IMG/VR virus record: IMGVR_UViG_2802429237_000002
Coordinates: 1-30,679 of that record
Strand: one strand, 5' to 3'
DNA length: 30,679 bases
Origin: a virus
Taxonomy: Duplodnaviria > Heunggongvirae > Uroviricota > Caudoviricetes
How positions within the stretch are numbered: the stretch's first letter is position 1; every line of letters starts with the position of its first letter. The notes under the pieces were generated by a model, which worked only from the letters and a program-made list of their open reading frames with translations, had not been told where the DNA came from and made no database searches. Positions 13,546 to 19,977 of this stretch are shown one piece after another. A program made the position numbers and the translations under genes.

Positions 13546-14207
13546 ATATCTACGAAAGAATTGATGGCAGCAAATACCGAAATATTTGGGTAGCTGGCGA
13601 CCTGCACGGATGCTACACGAACCTGATGAACAAACTGGATACGATTGGATTCGACACCAAAAAAGACCTGCTTATCTCGGTTGGCGATTTGGTTGATCGT
13701 GGTGCAGAGAACGTTGAATGCCTGGAATTAATCACATTCCCCTGGTTCAGAGCTGTACGTGGAAACCATGAGCACATGATGATTGATGGCTTATCAGAGC
13801 GTGGAAACGTCAATCACTGGCTGCTTAATGGCGGTGGCTGGTTCTTTAATCTCGATTATGACAAAGAAATTCTGGCTAAAGCTCTTGCCCATAAAGCAGA
13901 TGAACTTCCGTTAATCATCGAACTGGTGAGCAAAGATAAAAAATATGTCATCTGCCACGCCGATTATCCTTGTGACGAATACGAGTTTGGAAAGCCAGTT
14001 GATCATCAGCAGGTAATCTGGAACCGCGAACGAATCAGCAACTCACAAGACGGGATCGTGAAAGAAATCAAAGGCGCGGACACGTTCATCTTTGGTCATA
14101 CGCCAGCAGTGAAACCACTCAAGTTTGCCAACCAGATGTATATCGATACCGGCGCAGTGTTCTGCGGAAACCTCACATTGATTCAGGTACAGGGAGAAGG
14201 CGCATGA
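13542..14207 (+). CDS. ninI: Ser/Thr protein phosphatase (lambda PPase / NinI, calcineurin-like metallophosphoesterase)
   Basis: 221 aa; GDLHG, GDLVDRG and GNHE motifs. Confidence 0.9.
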
Positions 14208-14827
14208 GACTCGAAAGCGTAGCTAAATTTCATTCGCCAAAAAGCCCGATGATGAGCGACTCACCACGGGCCACGACTTCTGACTCTCTTTCCGGTACTG
14301 ATGTGATGGCTGCTATGGGGATGGCGCAATCACAAGCCGGATTCGGAATGGCTGTATTCTGTGGTAAGCACGAACTCAGCCAGAATGACAAACAAAAGGC
14401 TATCAACTATCTGATGCAATTTGCACACAAGGTATCGGGGAAATACCGTGGCGTTGCAAAGCTTGAAGGAAATACTAAGGCAAAGGTACTGCAAGTGCTC
14501 GCAACATTCGCTTATGCGGATTATTGCCGTAGTGCCGCGACGCCGGGCGCAAGATGCAGAGATTGCCACGGTACAGGTCGGGCAGTTGATATAGCAAAAA
14601 CAGAGCAGTGGGGGAGAGTTGTTGAGAAAGAGTGCGGAAGATGCAAAGGCGTCGGCTATTCAAGGATGCCAGCAAGTGCCGCATATCGCGCTGTAACGAT
14701 GCTAATCCCAAACCTTACCCAACCCACCTGGTCACGCACTGTTAAGCCGCTGTATGACGCTCTGGTGGTGCAATGCCACAAGGAAGAGTCAATTGCAGAC
14801 AATATTTTGAATGCAGTCACACGTTAG
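14204..14827 (+). CDS. Q: Late-gene antiterminator Q
   Basis: 207 aa; near-identical to lambda Q as recalled ([20 protein letters not shown]...; CRDCHGTGR...CGRCKG zinc motif). Confidence 0.92.
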
Positions 14828-15369: not shown

Positions 15370-15585
15370 ATGAAATCAATGGACAAAATCTCAACTGGCA
15401 TTGCCTACGGAACATCCGCTGGTAGTGCGGGATACTGGTTTTTGCAGTGGTTGGATCAGGTCAGTCCATCACAGTGGGCTGCGATTGGAGTGCTTGGAAG
15501 CCTTGTGTTGGGCTTTCTCACCTATCTGACAAATCTGTATTTCAAAATCAGAGAAGACAGACGAAAGGCTGCGAGAGGTGAATAA
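15370..15585 (+). CDS. S: Class II holin (phage 21 S21-type pinholin) with dual-start motif
   Basis: [28 protein letters not shown]... with two transmembrane segments; the two Met codons three codons apart give the S21-71/S21-68 arrangement; TAATG coupling to the endolysin. Confidence 0.8.
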
Positions 15586-16082
15586 TGCCTCCATCATTAC
15601 GAAAAGCCGTTGCTGCTGCTATTGGTGGCGGGGCTATTGCCATAGCATCTGTGTTAATCACTGGCCCAAGTGGTAACGATGGTCTGGAAGGTGTGAGACA
15701 TAATCCTTACAAAGACATAGTTGGTGTATGGACTGTATGTTACGGACATACAGGAAAAGACATCATTCCCGGTAAAACGTATACCGAAGCAGAATGCAAA
15801 GCCCTCCTGAATAAAGACCTTGCCACGGTCGCCAGACAAATTAACCCGTACATCAAAGTCGATATACCGGAAACAACGCGCGGCGCTCTTTACTCGTTCG
15901 TTTACAACGTGGGTGCAGGCAATTTCAGAACATCGACGCTTCTTCGCAAAATAAACCAGGGCGATATCAAAGGCGCATGTGACCAGCTACGTCGCTGGAC
16001 ATACGCTGGCGGTAAGCAATGGAAAGGGCTGATGACCCGTCGTGATATTGAGCGTGAAGTCTGTTTGTGGGGGCAGCAATGA
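15585..16082 (+). CDS. R: SAR endolysin (signal-anchor-release lysozyme, T4 E family)
   Basis: N-terminal Gly/Ala-rich weak TM ([23 protein letters not shown]) followed by a lysozyme domain with the E-x8-D-x5-T catalytic triad (E34, D43, T49). Confidence 0.85.
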
Positions 16083-16516
16083 GCAGGTTAACCGCGATTA
16101 TTTCCGCTCTGATTATCTGCATCATCGTCTGCCTGTCATGGGCTGTTAATCATTACCGTGATAACGCCATCGCCTACAAAGAGCAGCGCGATAAGGCCGC
16201 ATCCATCATCGCTGACATGCAGAAGCGTCAACGTGATGTAGCAGAACTCGACGCCAGATACACAAAGGAGCTTGCTGATGCTAACGCGACTATCGAAAGT
16301 CTCCGTGCTGATGTTTCTGCTGGTCGTAAGCGCCTGCAAGTCGCCGCCACCTGTGCAAAGTCAACGACCGGAGCCAGCAGCATGGGCGATGGAGAAAGCC
16401 CAAGACTTACAGCAGATGCTGAACTCAATTATTACCGTTTCAGAAGTGGAATCGACAGGATAACCGCGCAGGTTAACTACCTGCAGGAGTACATCAGGAC
16501 GCAATGCCTGAAATAA
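16079..16516 (+). CDS. Rz: Rz-like inner-membrane spanin
   Basis: N-terminal TM ([16 protein letters not shown]) followed by a coiled-coil-like periplasmic region; ATGA coupling with R. Confidence 0.75.
16272..16463 (+). CDS. Rz1: Rz1-like outer-membrane lipoprotein spanin, embedded in the +1 frame of Rz
   Basis: Signal peptide with lipobox-like VSAC followed by a Pro-rich mature region ([16 protein letters not shown]); entirely within Rz. Confidence 0.6.
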
Positions 16517-16547
16517 TTTTTTTGCAAATCACAAAGTCAATTTAATG

Positions 16548-16571
16548 AGCCTCGCGATGCGGGGCTTTTTG
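16548..16571 (+). terminator. Rho-independent terminator downstream of the lysis cassette
   Basis: Stem AGCCUCGC/GCGGGGCU (one G-U pair) with loop GAU, then TTTTT. Confidence 0.55.
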
Positions 16572-16577
16572 CAATAA

Positions 16578-16602
16578 ATGCGTACCGCAACGCATGTTTT
16601 TT
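16578..16602 (+). terminator. Second tandem terminator
   Basis: Stem ATGCGT/ACGCAT (16578-16583 and 16590-16595) with a 6-nt loop, then GTTTTTT. Confidence 0.55.
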
Positions 16603-16717
16603 ACACCGAACCTGCCCCTTTGGAATGGGCCTTTGAGGATACCAGTTAGTGCTGGCGAGCCTCGGTGGGCTGGTTTCCTGTGCGGCAAAGGTTCATTTCA
16701 AAGAGTAGGTACACGCT

Positions 16718-17215
16718 ATGAAATCATTAACCCTCTTCAATCAACCAATTCGTATCGGTGAAGATGGCATGATCTGCCTCACTGATATGTGGAAAGCCAG
16801 TGGTAAAAGTGAATCTGAATCTCCGTACCACTACCTGCGAAACAAGCAGACCAAAGAGTTCTTAGCCGAGCTGGAGAAAAACCACGAATCTGTGGTTTTT
16901 ACTGAGCGCGGTGTACACGGTGGAACATATGGCGGGAAGTTTGTTGCTTATGATTATGCAGCATGGCTAAACCCCGGATTTAAATATGCAGCCTATAAAG
17001 TCCTGGATGACTACTTCACCGGAGAACTTCAGCATCGCAACAGCTTAAGTGCGCAGCTCAATATGAAGTGTCATGAGTTTGATCAGAAAAAAGATATGGC
17101 GAGCTTCTGTGGACAAGGGCTGGCGGCATGGCGCTATACGAAGCCAGTGTTGGTCGCTGAGATTAACTCCCTGGCTAACCAGCTGCAGATAACGATCCCC
17201 GGGCTTCCGGGATGA
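16718..17215 (+). CDS. KilA-N domain protein
   Basis: N-terminal pattern IRIGEDGMICLTDMWKASGK...YLRNKQTKEFLAEL...GGTYGGKFVAYDYAAWLNPGF resembles KilA-N/APSES-type DNA-binding domains. Confidence 0.65.
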   Translation: MKSLTLFNQPIRIGEDGMICLTDMWKASGKSESESPYHYLRNKQTKEFLAELEKNHESVVFTERGVHGGTYGGKFVAYDYAAWLNPGFKYAAYKVLDDYFTGELQHRNSLSAQLNMKCHEFDQKKDMASFCGQGLAAWRYTKPVLVAEINSLANQLQITIPGLPG

Positions 17216-17469
17216 GTGATCGTGTCATTGAATGCGCCTCCAGAGCGGGGCGCGACTTCTCAGAGTTCATGAAAGGCGAGAAGGGCATGATGGAAGCATT
17301 GGCCTCGGTGGATGAGTTTGGCGAGCAGCTGCGCCTCAACGGCTGTGTCAATCATCACTTTGTTAGCTACATGATGCGGAACTCGATCATGCAGGCATTC
17401 ATGGACATGGCAAAAGCCGAGAGGAAAGAAGAGCGCCGGCGTAAGCGAGCGGAAGCAAAAGCGAAGTAG
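17212..17469 (+). CDS. Hypothetical protein (85 aa) with basic Lys/Arg-rich C-terminal tail
   Basis: ATGA coupling to the KilA-N gene; no family recognised. Confidence 0.45.
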   Translation: MSDRVIECASRAGRDFSEFMKGEKGMMEALASVDEFGEQLRLNGCVNHHFVSYMMRNSIMQAFMDMAKAERKEERRRKRAEAKAK

Positions 17470-17568
17470 CCATTACAAAGCCCATCTACTGGTGGGCTTG
17501 ACAATGGCTTATACCCTACACGGGATAACTTAACTGATATCCCTTTTAACGGATAAACGGAGCCAACA

Positions 17569-17811
17569 ATGGCAGAGATTATTCCCATGACTGAAGAACA
17601 GAAATTCCAGTTAGAGATTTACAAGCTGGTCATGAACCAGAACGCAGCCGCAGAGGAAGCATTTCAATTCATTGGCACTGACGAGCTGAAGCTTGAGCTA
17701 TTCAAAATTCACTTCCAGTCAGGCGGCGCTAATTCGGATATCACGATCCGCACATTCGAAGCGGTGCGTAAATCGAAGGAAGCGTTAGACCTGTTCACTA
17801 CCGGAGCATGA
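17569..17811 (+). CDS. Hypothetical protein (80 aa)
   Basis: ORF with GGAG upstream; no family recognised. Confidence 0.45.
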   Translation: MAEIIPMTEEQKFQLEIYKLVMNQNAAAEEAFQFIGTDELKLELFKIHFQSGGANSDITIRTFEAVRKSKEALDLFTTGA

Positions 17812-17812
17812 T

Positions 17813-18004
17813 GTGAGCCGCGTAATCAATTTGGGTAAGGAGAAGAAATTCCCAATTACTCAAGAGCTATACGAGCGGCTGGAAAGCGTCATCCATGATT
17901 ATGGTGAAATCAGTGTATGTGAGGCGATTGGCACACTCGAATTGCTGAAGCAGTCATTGATTGAAAGCATGAAGAGCCAACGACCAGAAATGACAATTAA
18001 GTGA
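17813..18004 (+). CDS. Hypothetical protein (63 aa)
   Basis: Tightly packed after the previous ORF; no family recognised. Confidence 0.4.
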
Positions 18005-18005
18005 G

Positions 18006-18500
18006 ATGAATATGGCAGCACCAAAGGGCAACCGATTTTGGGAGGCCCGCAGTAGTCATGGGCGAAACCCTAAATTCGAATCGCCTGAGGCGCTGTGGGC
18101 TGCTTGTTGTGAATACTTCGAGTGGGTGGAAGCTAACCCGCTATGGGAGATGAAGGCGTTCTCGTATCAGGGTGAAGTGATACAAGAGCCTATCGCCAAG
18201 ATGCGAGCGATGACCATTACCGGACTCACTCTGTTCATTGATGTGACGCTTGAAACATGGCGCACATATCGCCTGCGAGAAGATTTATCTGAAGTCGTTA
18301 CGCGAGCAGAACAGGTCATCTACGACCAGAAATTCTCTGGCGCAGCCGCTGACCTTCTCAACGCTAACATCATCGCCCGTGATTTGGGCCTCAAAGAGCA
18401 GTCGCAAGTTGAAGACGTGACACCTGATAAGGGAGATCGCGATAAGCGGCGCTCTCGTATCAAGGAGCTATTCAACCGTGGAGCTGGACGCGATTCTTGA
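18006..18500 (+). CDS. Terminase small subunit (P22 gp3-like)
   Basis: Matches P22 gp3 as recalled ([38 protein letters not shown]...); the pac-like sequence lies inside; start may be the second ATG at 18012. Confidence 0.8.
18279..18300 (+). other. pac-like packaging recognition site within the small terminase gene
   Basis: GAAGATTTATCTGAAGTCGTTA read directly; matches the P22 pac sequence as I recall it. Confidence 0.5.
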
Positions 18501-19977
18501 TAACCTGAGCGATGAAGAGCAAATCGAATTGCTCGAGCTACTCGAAGAAGAAGAGAACTACCGTAACACACACCTGCTATATGAATTTACGCCATACAGC
18601 AAACAGCGTGAGTTCATCGACGCCGGGCATGACTATCCAGAGCGCTGTTTTATGGCTGGTAACCAGCTTGGTAAGTCATTTACTGGTGCTGCTGAAGTCG
18701 CGTTTCACCTTACAGGGCGTTATCCGGGAACAAAAGGCTATCCGGCTGATGGTAAATATGGCGGGGAGTGGAAAGGTAAGCGTTTCTATGAGCCTGTTGT
18801 CTTCTGGATTGGCGGCGAGACAAACGAGACTGTAACCAAAACGACTCAACGCATCCTGTGCGGTCGTATCGAAGAGAATGATGAGCCAGGCTACGGTTCC
18901 ATACCGAAAGAGGACATCATTAGCTGGAAGAAGTCTCCTTTCTTTCCGAACCTTGTTGATCACCTTCTGGTTAAGCATCACACGGCTGATGGCGTTGAAG
19001 ATGGCATTTCAATCTGCTACTTCAAACCATACTCGCAAGGCCGTGCTCGCTGGCAGGGTGACACAATCCACGGCGTGTGGTTTGACGAAGAGCCACCATA
19101 CAGCATTTATGGCGAAGGGCTTACCCGTACCAACAAATACGGGCAATTCTCAATTCTGACGTTTACCCCGCTGATGGGGATGTCTGACGTTGTTACCAAG
19201 TTCCTGAAGAATCCCAGCAAGTCGCAGAAAGTGGTCAACATGACCATCTATGACGCTGAGCACTACACCGACGAGCAGAAAGAGCAAATCATTGCATCCT
19301 ATCCCGAGCATGAGAGAGAGGCGCGTGCTCGCGGTATTCCTACGATGGGTAGCGGTCGAATCTTTCAGATACCGGAAGAGACGATTAAGTGTCAGCCGTT
19401 CGAGTGTCCTGATCACTTCTACGTAATTGGCGGGATGGATTTCGGATGGGATCACCCGCAGGCGCAGGTTCAGCTTTGGTGGGATAAAGACGCAGACACA
19501 ATCTACGTTTCACGCGTGTGGAAGGCGAAAGAAAAAACAGCCGTTCAGGCGTGGGGAGCCGTTAAATCATGGGCGCATAAAGTGCCAACCGCATGGCCTC
19601 ATGACGGAAACCAGCATGAGAAGGGCGGCGGTGAGCAGCTCAAAGGGCAGTATGCAGACGCTGGATTTATGATGTTGCAGGAGCATGCGACATGGCCTGA
19701 TGGCGGTAATGCTGTTGAGCCTGGAATCACTGAATTGCGCGACATGATGCTTGATGGTCGCTTCAAAGTATTCAACACCTGTGAGCCATTCTTTGAGGAG
19801 TTCCGCCTCTATCACCGTGATGAAAACGGGAAAATCGTCAAGCTTAACGACGACGTTCTCTCAGCCGTTCGCTATGCATACATGATGCGCCGCTTCGCAA
19901 AAATGATGCGCGACATCAAAAAACCAAAAGAGAAAAAGATACCAGCCCCAATCAGGCCCATCGCACGGAGAACTTAA
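18478..19977 (+). CDS. Terminase large subunit (P22 gp2-like), GTG start
   Basis: 499 aa; ATPase N-terminal and nuclease C-terminal domains; overlaps the small-subunit gene by 23 nt. Confidence 0.92.

Follow-up and report, generated by a model that had tools for sequence, protein, structure and literature searches.

We analyzed a 30,679-nt stretch of DNA (IMG/VR virus record IMGVR_UViG_2802429237_000002, referred to here as the window) from a temperate P22-like (Lederbergvirus-type) phage, with a focus on the block of four small genes at positions 16517-18004 that separates the Rz/Rz1 spanin genes from the gene for the small terminase subunit. The first of these genes codes for a KilA-N domain protein, and the sequence preceding it had been described in an earlier note, which was drawn from the DNA letters alone, as a 115-bp untranslated leader. 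The length is right (16603-16717, 115 nt) but the view of a plain leader is not, as there is good support for the leader being a conserved RNA hairpin that buries the Shine-Dalgarno (SD) sequence of the first gene. This leader is new, and its placement in the class of SD-sequestering phage leader hairpins is likewise well supported. For the block as a whole we lean, by a modest measure, to the reading that it is a mosaic accessory stretch of a single late operon, that it is composed of two modules, and that the leader damps translation of the first gene.

A conserved RNA hairpin buries the ribosome-binding site of the KilA-N gene

When folded as RNA, the leader hairpin has a predicted stability of -48.7 kcal/mol (z -4.9), with a value of -33.7 kcal/mol for the minus strand, and contains a contiguous helix of 18-22 pairs in silico. 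The SD core of the KilA-N gene is paired in both the minimum free energy and the centroid structures, and its predicted unpaired probability is ~0 in all ten leader variants that were folded. There are at least five divergent leader sequence types, each of which folds alone into one common architecture that consists of an outer stem, a long P2 helix, helices P3 and P4, and a variable tip. The outer stem is formed by ACCUGC/GUAGGU in the window type and by CCUUU/AAAGG in other types. In addition, an invariant UGAG junction faces a 6-7-nt bulge on the 3' side (UGUGNGR). A K-turn was considered for this bulge and was rejected by inspection because the G-A pairs are inconsistent across types.

Conservation of the fold was addressed with two covariance models. 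Model R1, which was built from leaders of the HK620 type only, recovers the window leader with 48.8 bits (E 3e-9). The retrained model R2 finds it with 91 bits (E 2e-19) as the sole copy in the window, and the minus strand scores 12.8 bits. Covariation was then computed on the covariance-model alignment of 39 distinct sequences, in which 94% of the cells are paired and 20 of the 29 pairs have changed on both sides (200 cells). The resulting covariation score of 0.505 compares with 0.04-0.12 when the pairing partners are slid by 1-3 columns, and none of 500 shuffles reaches it. A leader peptide or other coding cause of this conservation was rejected, given that the ATG at 16594 is not conserved, that other leader types contain stops, and that the changes are compensatory. 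A search of the whole window against Rfam 15 returned zero families at gathering scores, and a permissive search gave only sub-threshold matches to STnc470, isrJ and DUF805b.

Table 1. Positions in the window of the leader, its companion hairpins, the block genes and the surrounding late genes.
Feature	Position	Strand	Remarks
Q antiterminator gene	14204-14827		late region; holin gene comes next
Lysozyme gene	15585-16082
Rz/Rz1 spanin genes	16067-16516		directly before the block
T1, predicted intrinsic terminator	16547-16570	+	after spanin gene; 9-bp G+C-rich stem, loop GAU, U5
hp2, second terminator of the earlier note	16578-16602	+	ATGCGU-ACCGCA-ACGCAU, then U6
Long leader hairpin P0-P4	16610-16710	+	~100 nt, imperfect; UGAG junction, 6-nt 3' bulge; covariance-model match 16613-16720
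SD region (G)UAGGU of KilA-N gene	16705-16710	+	7 nt before AUG; pairs with ACCUGC 16610-16615
KilA-N + ORF11CD3 gene (HK620 hkbK)	16718-17215	+	165 amino acids; PF04383, PF10549; phrog_129, phrog_10441
hkbL homologue	17212-17469	+	85 amino acids; phrog_875 E 3e-54; ATGA overlap with KilA-N stop
Hairpin right after hkbL stop	17468-17509	+	-25 kcal/mol, z -5.4; 9+7 bp; no U tract
Putative junction scar	17500-17557	+	GACAAUGG joint, apparent remnant of P22 orf25-like mini-ORF, small hairpin 17522-17543
DUF2560 gene (P22 orf80, HK620 hkbM)	17558-17811 (ORF 17569-17811)	+	80 amino acids; own SD GGAG; PF10834 E 2.6e-42
hkbN homologue (P22 orf59c, Sf6 gene 68)	17813-18004	+	63 amino acids; phrog_3546 E 1.7e-38
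Small terminase subunit gp3	18006-18500	+	PF16677 E 3.6e-33; phrog_606; first essential late gene past the block
Large terminase gene	start 18478
Portal gene	start 19978

The leader hairpin belongs to a unit that precedes many different genes

Upstream of the long hairpin there are two shorter ones (Table 1) that had been taken for tandem terminators. This holds for the first of them, T1, which is strong. Its stem (16547-16555/16559-16567) has a stability of -14.1 kcal/mol (z -3.5) that none of 200 shuffles equals, and its G+C-rich stem-loop followed by a U tract makes it a predicted intrinsic terminator. T1 homologues follow Rz in P22 and HK620, and the ES18 record labels its homologue a putative terminator. 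The second hairpin, hp2, is weak, with a 6-bp stem (16578-16583/16590-16595) of -6.9 kcal/mol (z -1.8) that a terminator scan lists but that is marginal as a terminator, and is really a conserved short hairpin of the leader unit. Specifically, all of the units examined (13 of 13) have a short GCGC-N6-7-GCGC hairpin between the terminator and the long one, mostly with no U run behind it, and the P22 counterpart reads GCGC-ACCGCA-GCGC. The U run that follows hp2 appears to have been acquired only by the sequence type of the window. In 11-13 of these 13 units, hp2 is itself preceded by a hairpin that resembles a terminator and has a U run.

The distribution of this terminator-hp2-hairpin unit was assessed in a comparison of 160 IMG/VR loci for which the KilA-N or the DUF2560 protein served as anchor, where DUF2560 is the third gene product of the block. 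The unit occupies the slot after Rz in 53 of 80 P22-like loci. Leaders of the window type are present in 75 phage records, covering phages of Salmonella, Escherichia, Shigella, Klebsiella, Enterobacter and Hafnia, and are annotated in none of them; one carrier is the P22-like prophage BTP1. The T1-to-AUG unit of the window (16540-16720) also has matches in 836 of 5426 complete E. coli genomes (15%), with 462 of the 836 covering at least 80% of the unit length and with Shiga toxin (Stx) prophages of O157:H7 among them. The unit was not found in lambda.

What follows the unit is highly variable. The leader is nearly unchanged in front of P22 rha, and HK620 has a leader of very different sequence and equal fold. 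Genes behind the unit code for KilA-N proteins with various C-termini, Rha, P22_AR_N proteins, fusions of an hkbL-like part with T5orf172/MUG113, HNH_3+AP2 proteins, and other HNH or annotated homing endonucleases. A given leader type is not tied to a given downstream gene; the two assort independently and are joined at the SD-ATG spacer. The claim that the slot between spanin and terminase genes is variable among related phages is also borne out, as no fewer than 13 different genes are seen in the first position after Rz across the 160 loci. The genes behind the leader in related phages are possibly selfish.

Several individual loci deserve mention. Locus L071 (2946-5519) has three leader-plus-KilA-N units in a row, namely KilA-N+P63C, a window-type KilA-N+hkbL pair and a third KilA-N type. 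HNH genes stand behind divergent leader copies in L097 (1154-1744), L165 (1498-2104), L029 (1619-2230) and L039 (5495-6154); these units lie between Q or tRNAs and the holin gene, or after hkbL, and in L097 and the Klebsiella phage RothC just after Q. In P22 the RefSeq start of rha (ORF201) falls inside the leader hairpin (L162 1576-1645, equal to NC_002371 39575-39644), and by the model the true ATG is probably 69 nt further downstream. The same is true for a RothC gene annotated as a 'homing endonuclease', whose GenBank start is inside the leader (L165 1565-1603) and whose likely ATG is 36 nt downstream. A Tad2-like gene (PF11195, Thoeris anti-defence) is the first gene after Rz in L127 (2974-3450) and also in L083 and L135, so the slot can carry counter-defence cargo; in the L127 type T1 is present and the long leader hairpin is absent. 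Finally, P22 has an ~87-codon minus-strand open reading frame (ORF) between orf25 and orf80 (L162 ~2405-2710) that is unannotated in RefSeq, is preceded by a bidirectional-looking terminator (AAAAAAGCCGCTTACTTAGCGGCTT), has a moron-like look and is absent from the window.

The block genes are already known and appear to fall into at least two modules

The block contains four + strand ORFs of 165, 85, 80 and 63 amino acids, and their coordinates and lengths are as had been claimed. At the DNA level the block shares 95% identity with hkbK, hkbL, hkbM and hkbN of HK620, and P22 has counterparts at matching positions (the rha slot, orf80 and orf59c). The four genes are thus already catalogued in HK620 and P22 as named unknowns and are not new, and they have reportedly been listed as such in both phages since about 2000. 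What is new is the leader; the genes themselves are ordinary. The stretch from gene 15/Rz to gene 3 of P22 and the hkbK-hkbN region of HK620 have the gene order and orientation of the window, and T1 follows Rz in all three. HK620 differs in its leader type and is longer at two points, by 140 bp before T1 and by 250 bp from hkbL to hkbM. P22 differs in that rha replaces the KilA-N gene and hkbL, and in that it has a 600-bp insert with the minus-strand ORF. The C-terminus of the window hkbN product is of the Sf6 gene 68 type, unlike that of HK620 or P22.

The earlier note was correct in its KilA-N assignment of the first gene (PF04383 E 1.3e-15; 57.6 bits against a gathering cut-off of 23.8; residues 9-101). 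The protein also has a C-terminal ORF11CD3 domain of the Bro network (PF10549 E 2.4e-13; 50.5 bits against a cut-off of 25; residues 109-161), which is common to the P22-type Rha proteins and the window KilA-N protein. The Rha winged-helix domain PF09669 gave no Pfam match in this protein, and the Rha-like PHROG 518 aligns to it at residues 105-163 only. The ratio of nonsynonymous to synonymous substitution rates (dN/dS) relative to HK620 is 0.07, as expected under purifying selection. By its domains the KilA-N protein appears to be a Bro-network DNA-binding protein and the positional equivalent of P22 rha. With PADLOC it weakly matches candidate system PDC-S22 (E 1e-8) over a 31-residue stretch only; a QatB match in the block was at chance level and was set aside.

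The three small ORFs had been said to belong to no recognised family. This is not so, since the 80-amino-acid protein is Pfam DUF2560, and homology searches matched the three proteins to PHROGs 875, 571 and 3546 with named homologues in HK620 and P22. Every locus with this KilA-N gene (78 of 78) has the hkbL homologue behind it, and this pair also occurs in Stx and lambda-like phages. There are 138 hkbL homologues, all in Enterobacterales. The AlphaFold2 model is a three-helix protein with a basic AK-rich tail (mean confidence score, pLDDT, of 92), and the protein is 28% identical to the N-terminal part of the T5orf172/MUG113 fusion proteins found in the equivalent slot. At the 3' end of hkbL (17446-17466) a hexanucleotide repeat, (GCAAAA)n, encodes the (AK)n tail, and its copy number ranges from ~1 to >8 between otherwise near-identical relatives (L017, L026, L058 and others).

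The DUF2560 match covers the full 72-position profile of PF10834 with 143.3 bits (cut-off 25), and the protein is 96-97% identical to P22 orf80 and HK620 hkbM. Its dN/dS is 0.06-0.27, which is purifying where divergence permits the test. The AlphaFold2 model is a four-helix bundle of modest confidence (pLDDT 68). Foldseek searches with the DUF2560 model against PDB, and with the hkbL model against PDB and BFVD, gave nothing at E < 0.1 and only generic helical bundles. DUF2560 occurs in 158 phage records, compared with 164 records that have a P22-type portal at 80% coverage or more, and is seen only beside a P22-like portal gene. It therefore appears to be near-universal in enterobacterial P22-like phages and not sporadic. 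HK140 and the mEp siphophages have a short ORF (phrog_23132) whose beginning matches the first 28 DUF2560 codons (17569-17652) with 93-96% identity, a likeness that points to a recombination joint inside the DUF2560 gene.

hkbN starts with GTG 2 nt past the DUF2560 stop and ends 1 nt before the small-terminase gene begins. It is present in 43 phage records, is 95% identical to Sf6 gene 68, and is optional in that it adjoins DUF2560 in 25 of 77 loci. DUF2560 and hkbN, which have ordinary SDs and run into gene 3, are most simply taken as late genes of P22-like phages. For all four block proteins a PDB sequence search gave no match, an NCBIfam search of the block proteins gave none, and the literature on DUF2560, ORF11CD3 and the hkb genes yielded no functional information.

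The genes had been presented as a single four-gene block, and this unity does not hold up, as the block appears to be built of at least two modules, 16547-17557 and 17558-18004. Breaks in homology are concentrated in three places: the Rz stop or end, the KilA-N ATG and the gap at 17470-17557. Sequence shared with Stx phages runs up to 17557, and at the module joint 17557/17558 homology to P22 starts at CGGAGCCAACAATG. Among 72 loci with KilA-N and hkbL, DUF2560 is present within 1.5 kb downstream in 20 and absent there in 52, and the loci lacking it belong to Stx- or lambda-like phages whose head genes differ. The description of the block as accessory is half right. The KilA-N/hkbL pair is clearly accessory to judge from its occurrence with unrelated head genes and from P22 having rha in its place.

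The 99-bp gap at 17470-17568 does contain the AAGCCCA/TGGGCTT hairpin that had been pointed out, and this hairpin is larger than claimed, with 9+7 bp. Its inner 9 bp are conserved in all contexts, with altered stem sequences in L081, L056, L039 and L043, and its outer 7 bp are found in the junction variant of the window only. Since the inner hairpin is kept in all contexts with changes in its stem, it belongs to the KilA-N/hkbL module. The small hairpin that follows at 17522-17543 is weak (-8.3 kcal/mol) and is succeeded by U4. The ~250 additional bp of HK620 lie between the direct repeats TTGATAATG and TCGACAATGG. The gap is thus probably a junction scar, with its 3' half a likely remnant of a mini-ORF resembling P22 orf25. 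Repeats within the block were also considered and are at chance level only.

The block is probably transcribed with the late operon

The earlier note had suggested lysogenic-conversion or exclusion cargo that is expressed from its own promoter, and our results speak against this. A consensus scan of the + strand from 15500 to 19000 found no sigma-70-like promoter, although a weak, non-canonical or activator-dependent promoter could escape such a scan, and the leader alignment contains no promoter-like site that is conserved across leader types. On the minus strand there is a promoter-like site at 16513-16540 (TTGACT-16-AATTAT, 9/12) that is directed antisense into Rz/Rz1; such sites occur at chance frequency. 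The G+C content of the block (0.44-0.55) shows no shift from that of the flanks (0.45-0.54), the block genes are co-oriented with the late operon, and their frames overlap or abut each other and gene 3. T1 lies upstream, and the SD of the first gene is buried in the leader hairpin. From the missing + strand promoter, the unshifted composition and the overlapping or abutting frames, we read the block as late, Q-dependent and translationally throttled and not as lysogenic-conversion cargo. Strict co-transcription with the late genes is more likely than expression in the lysogen. The rha gene of P22 is counted among those of the late operon (PMC4936722). In the BTP1 prophage the lytic and late genes form one large polycistronic operon, and the loci reported to be highly expressed in lysogeny lie outside this region (PMC7067206).

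In the proposed mechanism, the first module would be a promoter-less insulated cassette made up of T1, hp2, the long hairpin, the KilA-N gene, hkbL and the 3' hairpin. The second would contribute DUF2560/orf80 and hkbN/orf59c, each with its own SD, and would run into the small-terminase gene. Only a Q-modified, terminator-resistant polymerase would pass T1 and hp2, and the cassette would be transcribed late in lytic growth and be silent in the lysogen. The leader hairpin would then occlude the KilA-N ribosome-binding site, as suggested by folding and covariation, and the possibly toxic KilA-N protein, together with the coupled hkbL product, would be made scantily or only once the hairpin opens. 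RNase III cutting the >20-bp helix is a candidate for the opening step. Given that one unit stands before interchangeable Rha, KilA-N, P22_AR_N, T5orf172 and HNH genes, it may be a general-purpose damper of expression for cargo of this kind.

Several points weigh against this reading. RNAalifold on a plain MAFFT alignment of the leaders gave the inner helix only, though with GC/AU/CG swaps; as plain MAFFT misaligned the 3' arms, the covariance-model alignment with controls was used instead. A structural alignment that is fitted to a model inflates the paired percentage, and the compensatory changes come from ~6-8 sequence types and thus represent few independent events. Many other SDs in the window, folded locally as controls, are also predicted to be partly paired, so occlusion alone is not distinctive and the argument rests on the covariation. 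In regards to the mechanism, Q-dependent read-through of T1 and hp2 is assumed from the biology of lambda and P22, and toxicity of the KilA-N protein is assumed from P1 KilA and P22 Rha. This analysis identified no factor able to open a hairpin of -49 kcal/mol.

Other explanations for the leader and the block

One other explanation is that the long hairpin is mainly an element for processing by RNase III or RNase E, or for stability, that segments the ~20-kb late transcript, with the pairing of the SD being incidental. The RNase III sites of phages T7 and lambda have a near-continuous helix with an asymmetric internal loop. The leader likewise has, in silico, a near-continuous helix of >20 bp, which is about the two turns that such a site takes, with an asymmetric internal loop. 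Its junction and bulge do not vary, and the cassette has another conserved hairpin at its 3' end. We nonetheless consider this explanation rather improbable, as pairing of the SD is maintained through different sequences in different leader types (the ACCUGC/GUAGGU and CCUUU/AAAGG stems), which would be needless for a pure processing site. It is also compatible with the damper reading, where processing could be the opening step.

Another explanation, which we hold to be unlikely, is that the unit is a portable cassette head that marks, insulates and helps to shuffle selfish DNA-binding and nuclease genes of the Bro-network and HNH kinds among the temperate phages of enterobacteria. The unit would then act in cis, as RNA or DNA, and have a specific partner. 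This protein or RNase would recognize the invariant UGAG junction and the 3' bulge and would control the timing of translation.

A moron-like island that has its own promoter and is expressed in the lysogen for lysogenic conversion or superinfection exclusion is quite unlikely. The slot is variable and possibly open to counter-defence cargo (the Tad2-like gene of L127), lambda bor sits at the equivalent place, terminators flank the 5' side, and the KilA-N protein has its weak PDC-S22 match. Like the lambdoid morons (lambda bor, those of HK97 and HK022), the block is exchangeable extra DNA between late genes, and the bor slot is identical. It is unlike them in that it has no promoter-like site of its own on the + strand, no deviant composition, an orientation on the late-gene strand in frames that overlap or abut the late operon, and a first gene whose SD is buried in a conserved hairpin and whose translation would be damped. 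At its 3' side, where a moron has a terminator, the window has the strong hairpin at 17468-17509 without a U tract and the weak one at 17522-17543 with U4. In addition, DUF2560 is near-universal in P22-like phages and not sporadic, and the BTP1 loci expressed in lysogeny are elsewhere (PMC7067206).

It is similarly doubtful that the unit is a DNA landmark for cassette exchange, be it a recombination hot spot, a target of HNH/Bro homing or an attC-like folded site. The independent assortment of leader types and downstream genes with a joint at the SD-ATG spacer is in keeping with such a role, and so are the several positions that units take in genomes, the existence of a three-unit array and the association with HNH+AP2 endonucleases. 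However, the structure depends on G-U pairs, and the opposite strand forms it far less well (12.8 versus 91 bits), which argues for RNA. Furthermore, no recombinase travels with the unit or is adjacent to the window copy, and the shuffling is accounted for by homologous recombination of the ordinary kind between conserved flanks.

Finally, T1 is very unlikely to act mainly as the end of an IsrJ-like small RNA (sRNA) that originates at the spanin mRNA 3' end and acts in the lysogen, as the Rfam isrJ (RF01393) match of the Rz 3' end and T1 (16501-16568) has 18.5 bits, half of the gathering threshold of 37 and mostly from the terminator stem, there is no upstream + strand promoter, and such an sRNA says nothing on the genes or the leader. 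IsrJ itself comes from the Gifsy-1 prophage and is an sRNA with high transcription in lysogens (PMC7067206); its terminator stem is nearly identical to T1 with a weak likeness in the preceding 40 nt, and the window differs in matching below the family threshold. The anti-sRNAs of enterohaemorrhagic E. coli prophages were considered as well and were rejected because they map 3' of PR' and not at this block.

Discussion

Among the closest known counterparts of the window arrangement, besides the HK620 and P22 regions, are the Rha proteins of P22 and phi80. Rha is a product of the late operon, and as cited in PMC4936722 and in the ES18 record it prevents phages from growing in hosts that lack integration host factor (IHF). 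Rha shares with the window KilA-N protein the slot, a nearly identical leader hairpin and the C-terminal ORF11CD3 domain, and differs in having a Rha domain at the N-terminus where the window protein has KilA-N. A search of the block for the IHF consensus found no site.

Sequestration of a ribosome-binding site in a hairpin is known from the homing-endonuclease genes of T4 (I-TevI, I-TevII, I-TevIII, segB and mobE; PMC2988022). In both cases the gene concerned is non-essential and potentially harmful, lies within a long polycistronic transcript, and has its SD enclosed in a highly stable hairpin. The leaders of relatives also precede HNH endonucleases, and the cargo in the window is a KilA-N protein. 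Unlike the T4 type, the window has no internal late promoter-like site within or after the 5' arm that would give hairpin-free transcripts. A further difference is that its hairpin is ~100 nt long with a conserved bulge and junction, belongs to a homologous family, and is coupled to a terminator and a second hairpin.

Thus, the well-studied phages P22, HK620, ES18 and BTP1 and the Stx phages carry a covarying RNA of ~100 nt before rha- or kilA-type genes that is unannotated in the records examined. Annotation pipelines translate into this leader, as seen with P22 ORF201 and the RothC 'homing endonuclease', and the leader can guide the correction of such start codons. The leader also provides a handle on how phages keep Bro-family and HNH cargo harmless and on the 30-year-old observation that links Rha to IHF; a portable cassette head, if true, could explain this Rha-IHF phenotype.

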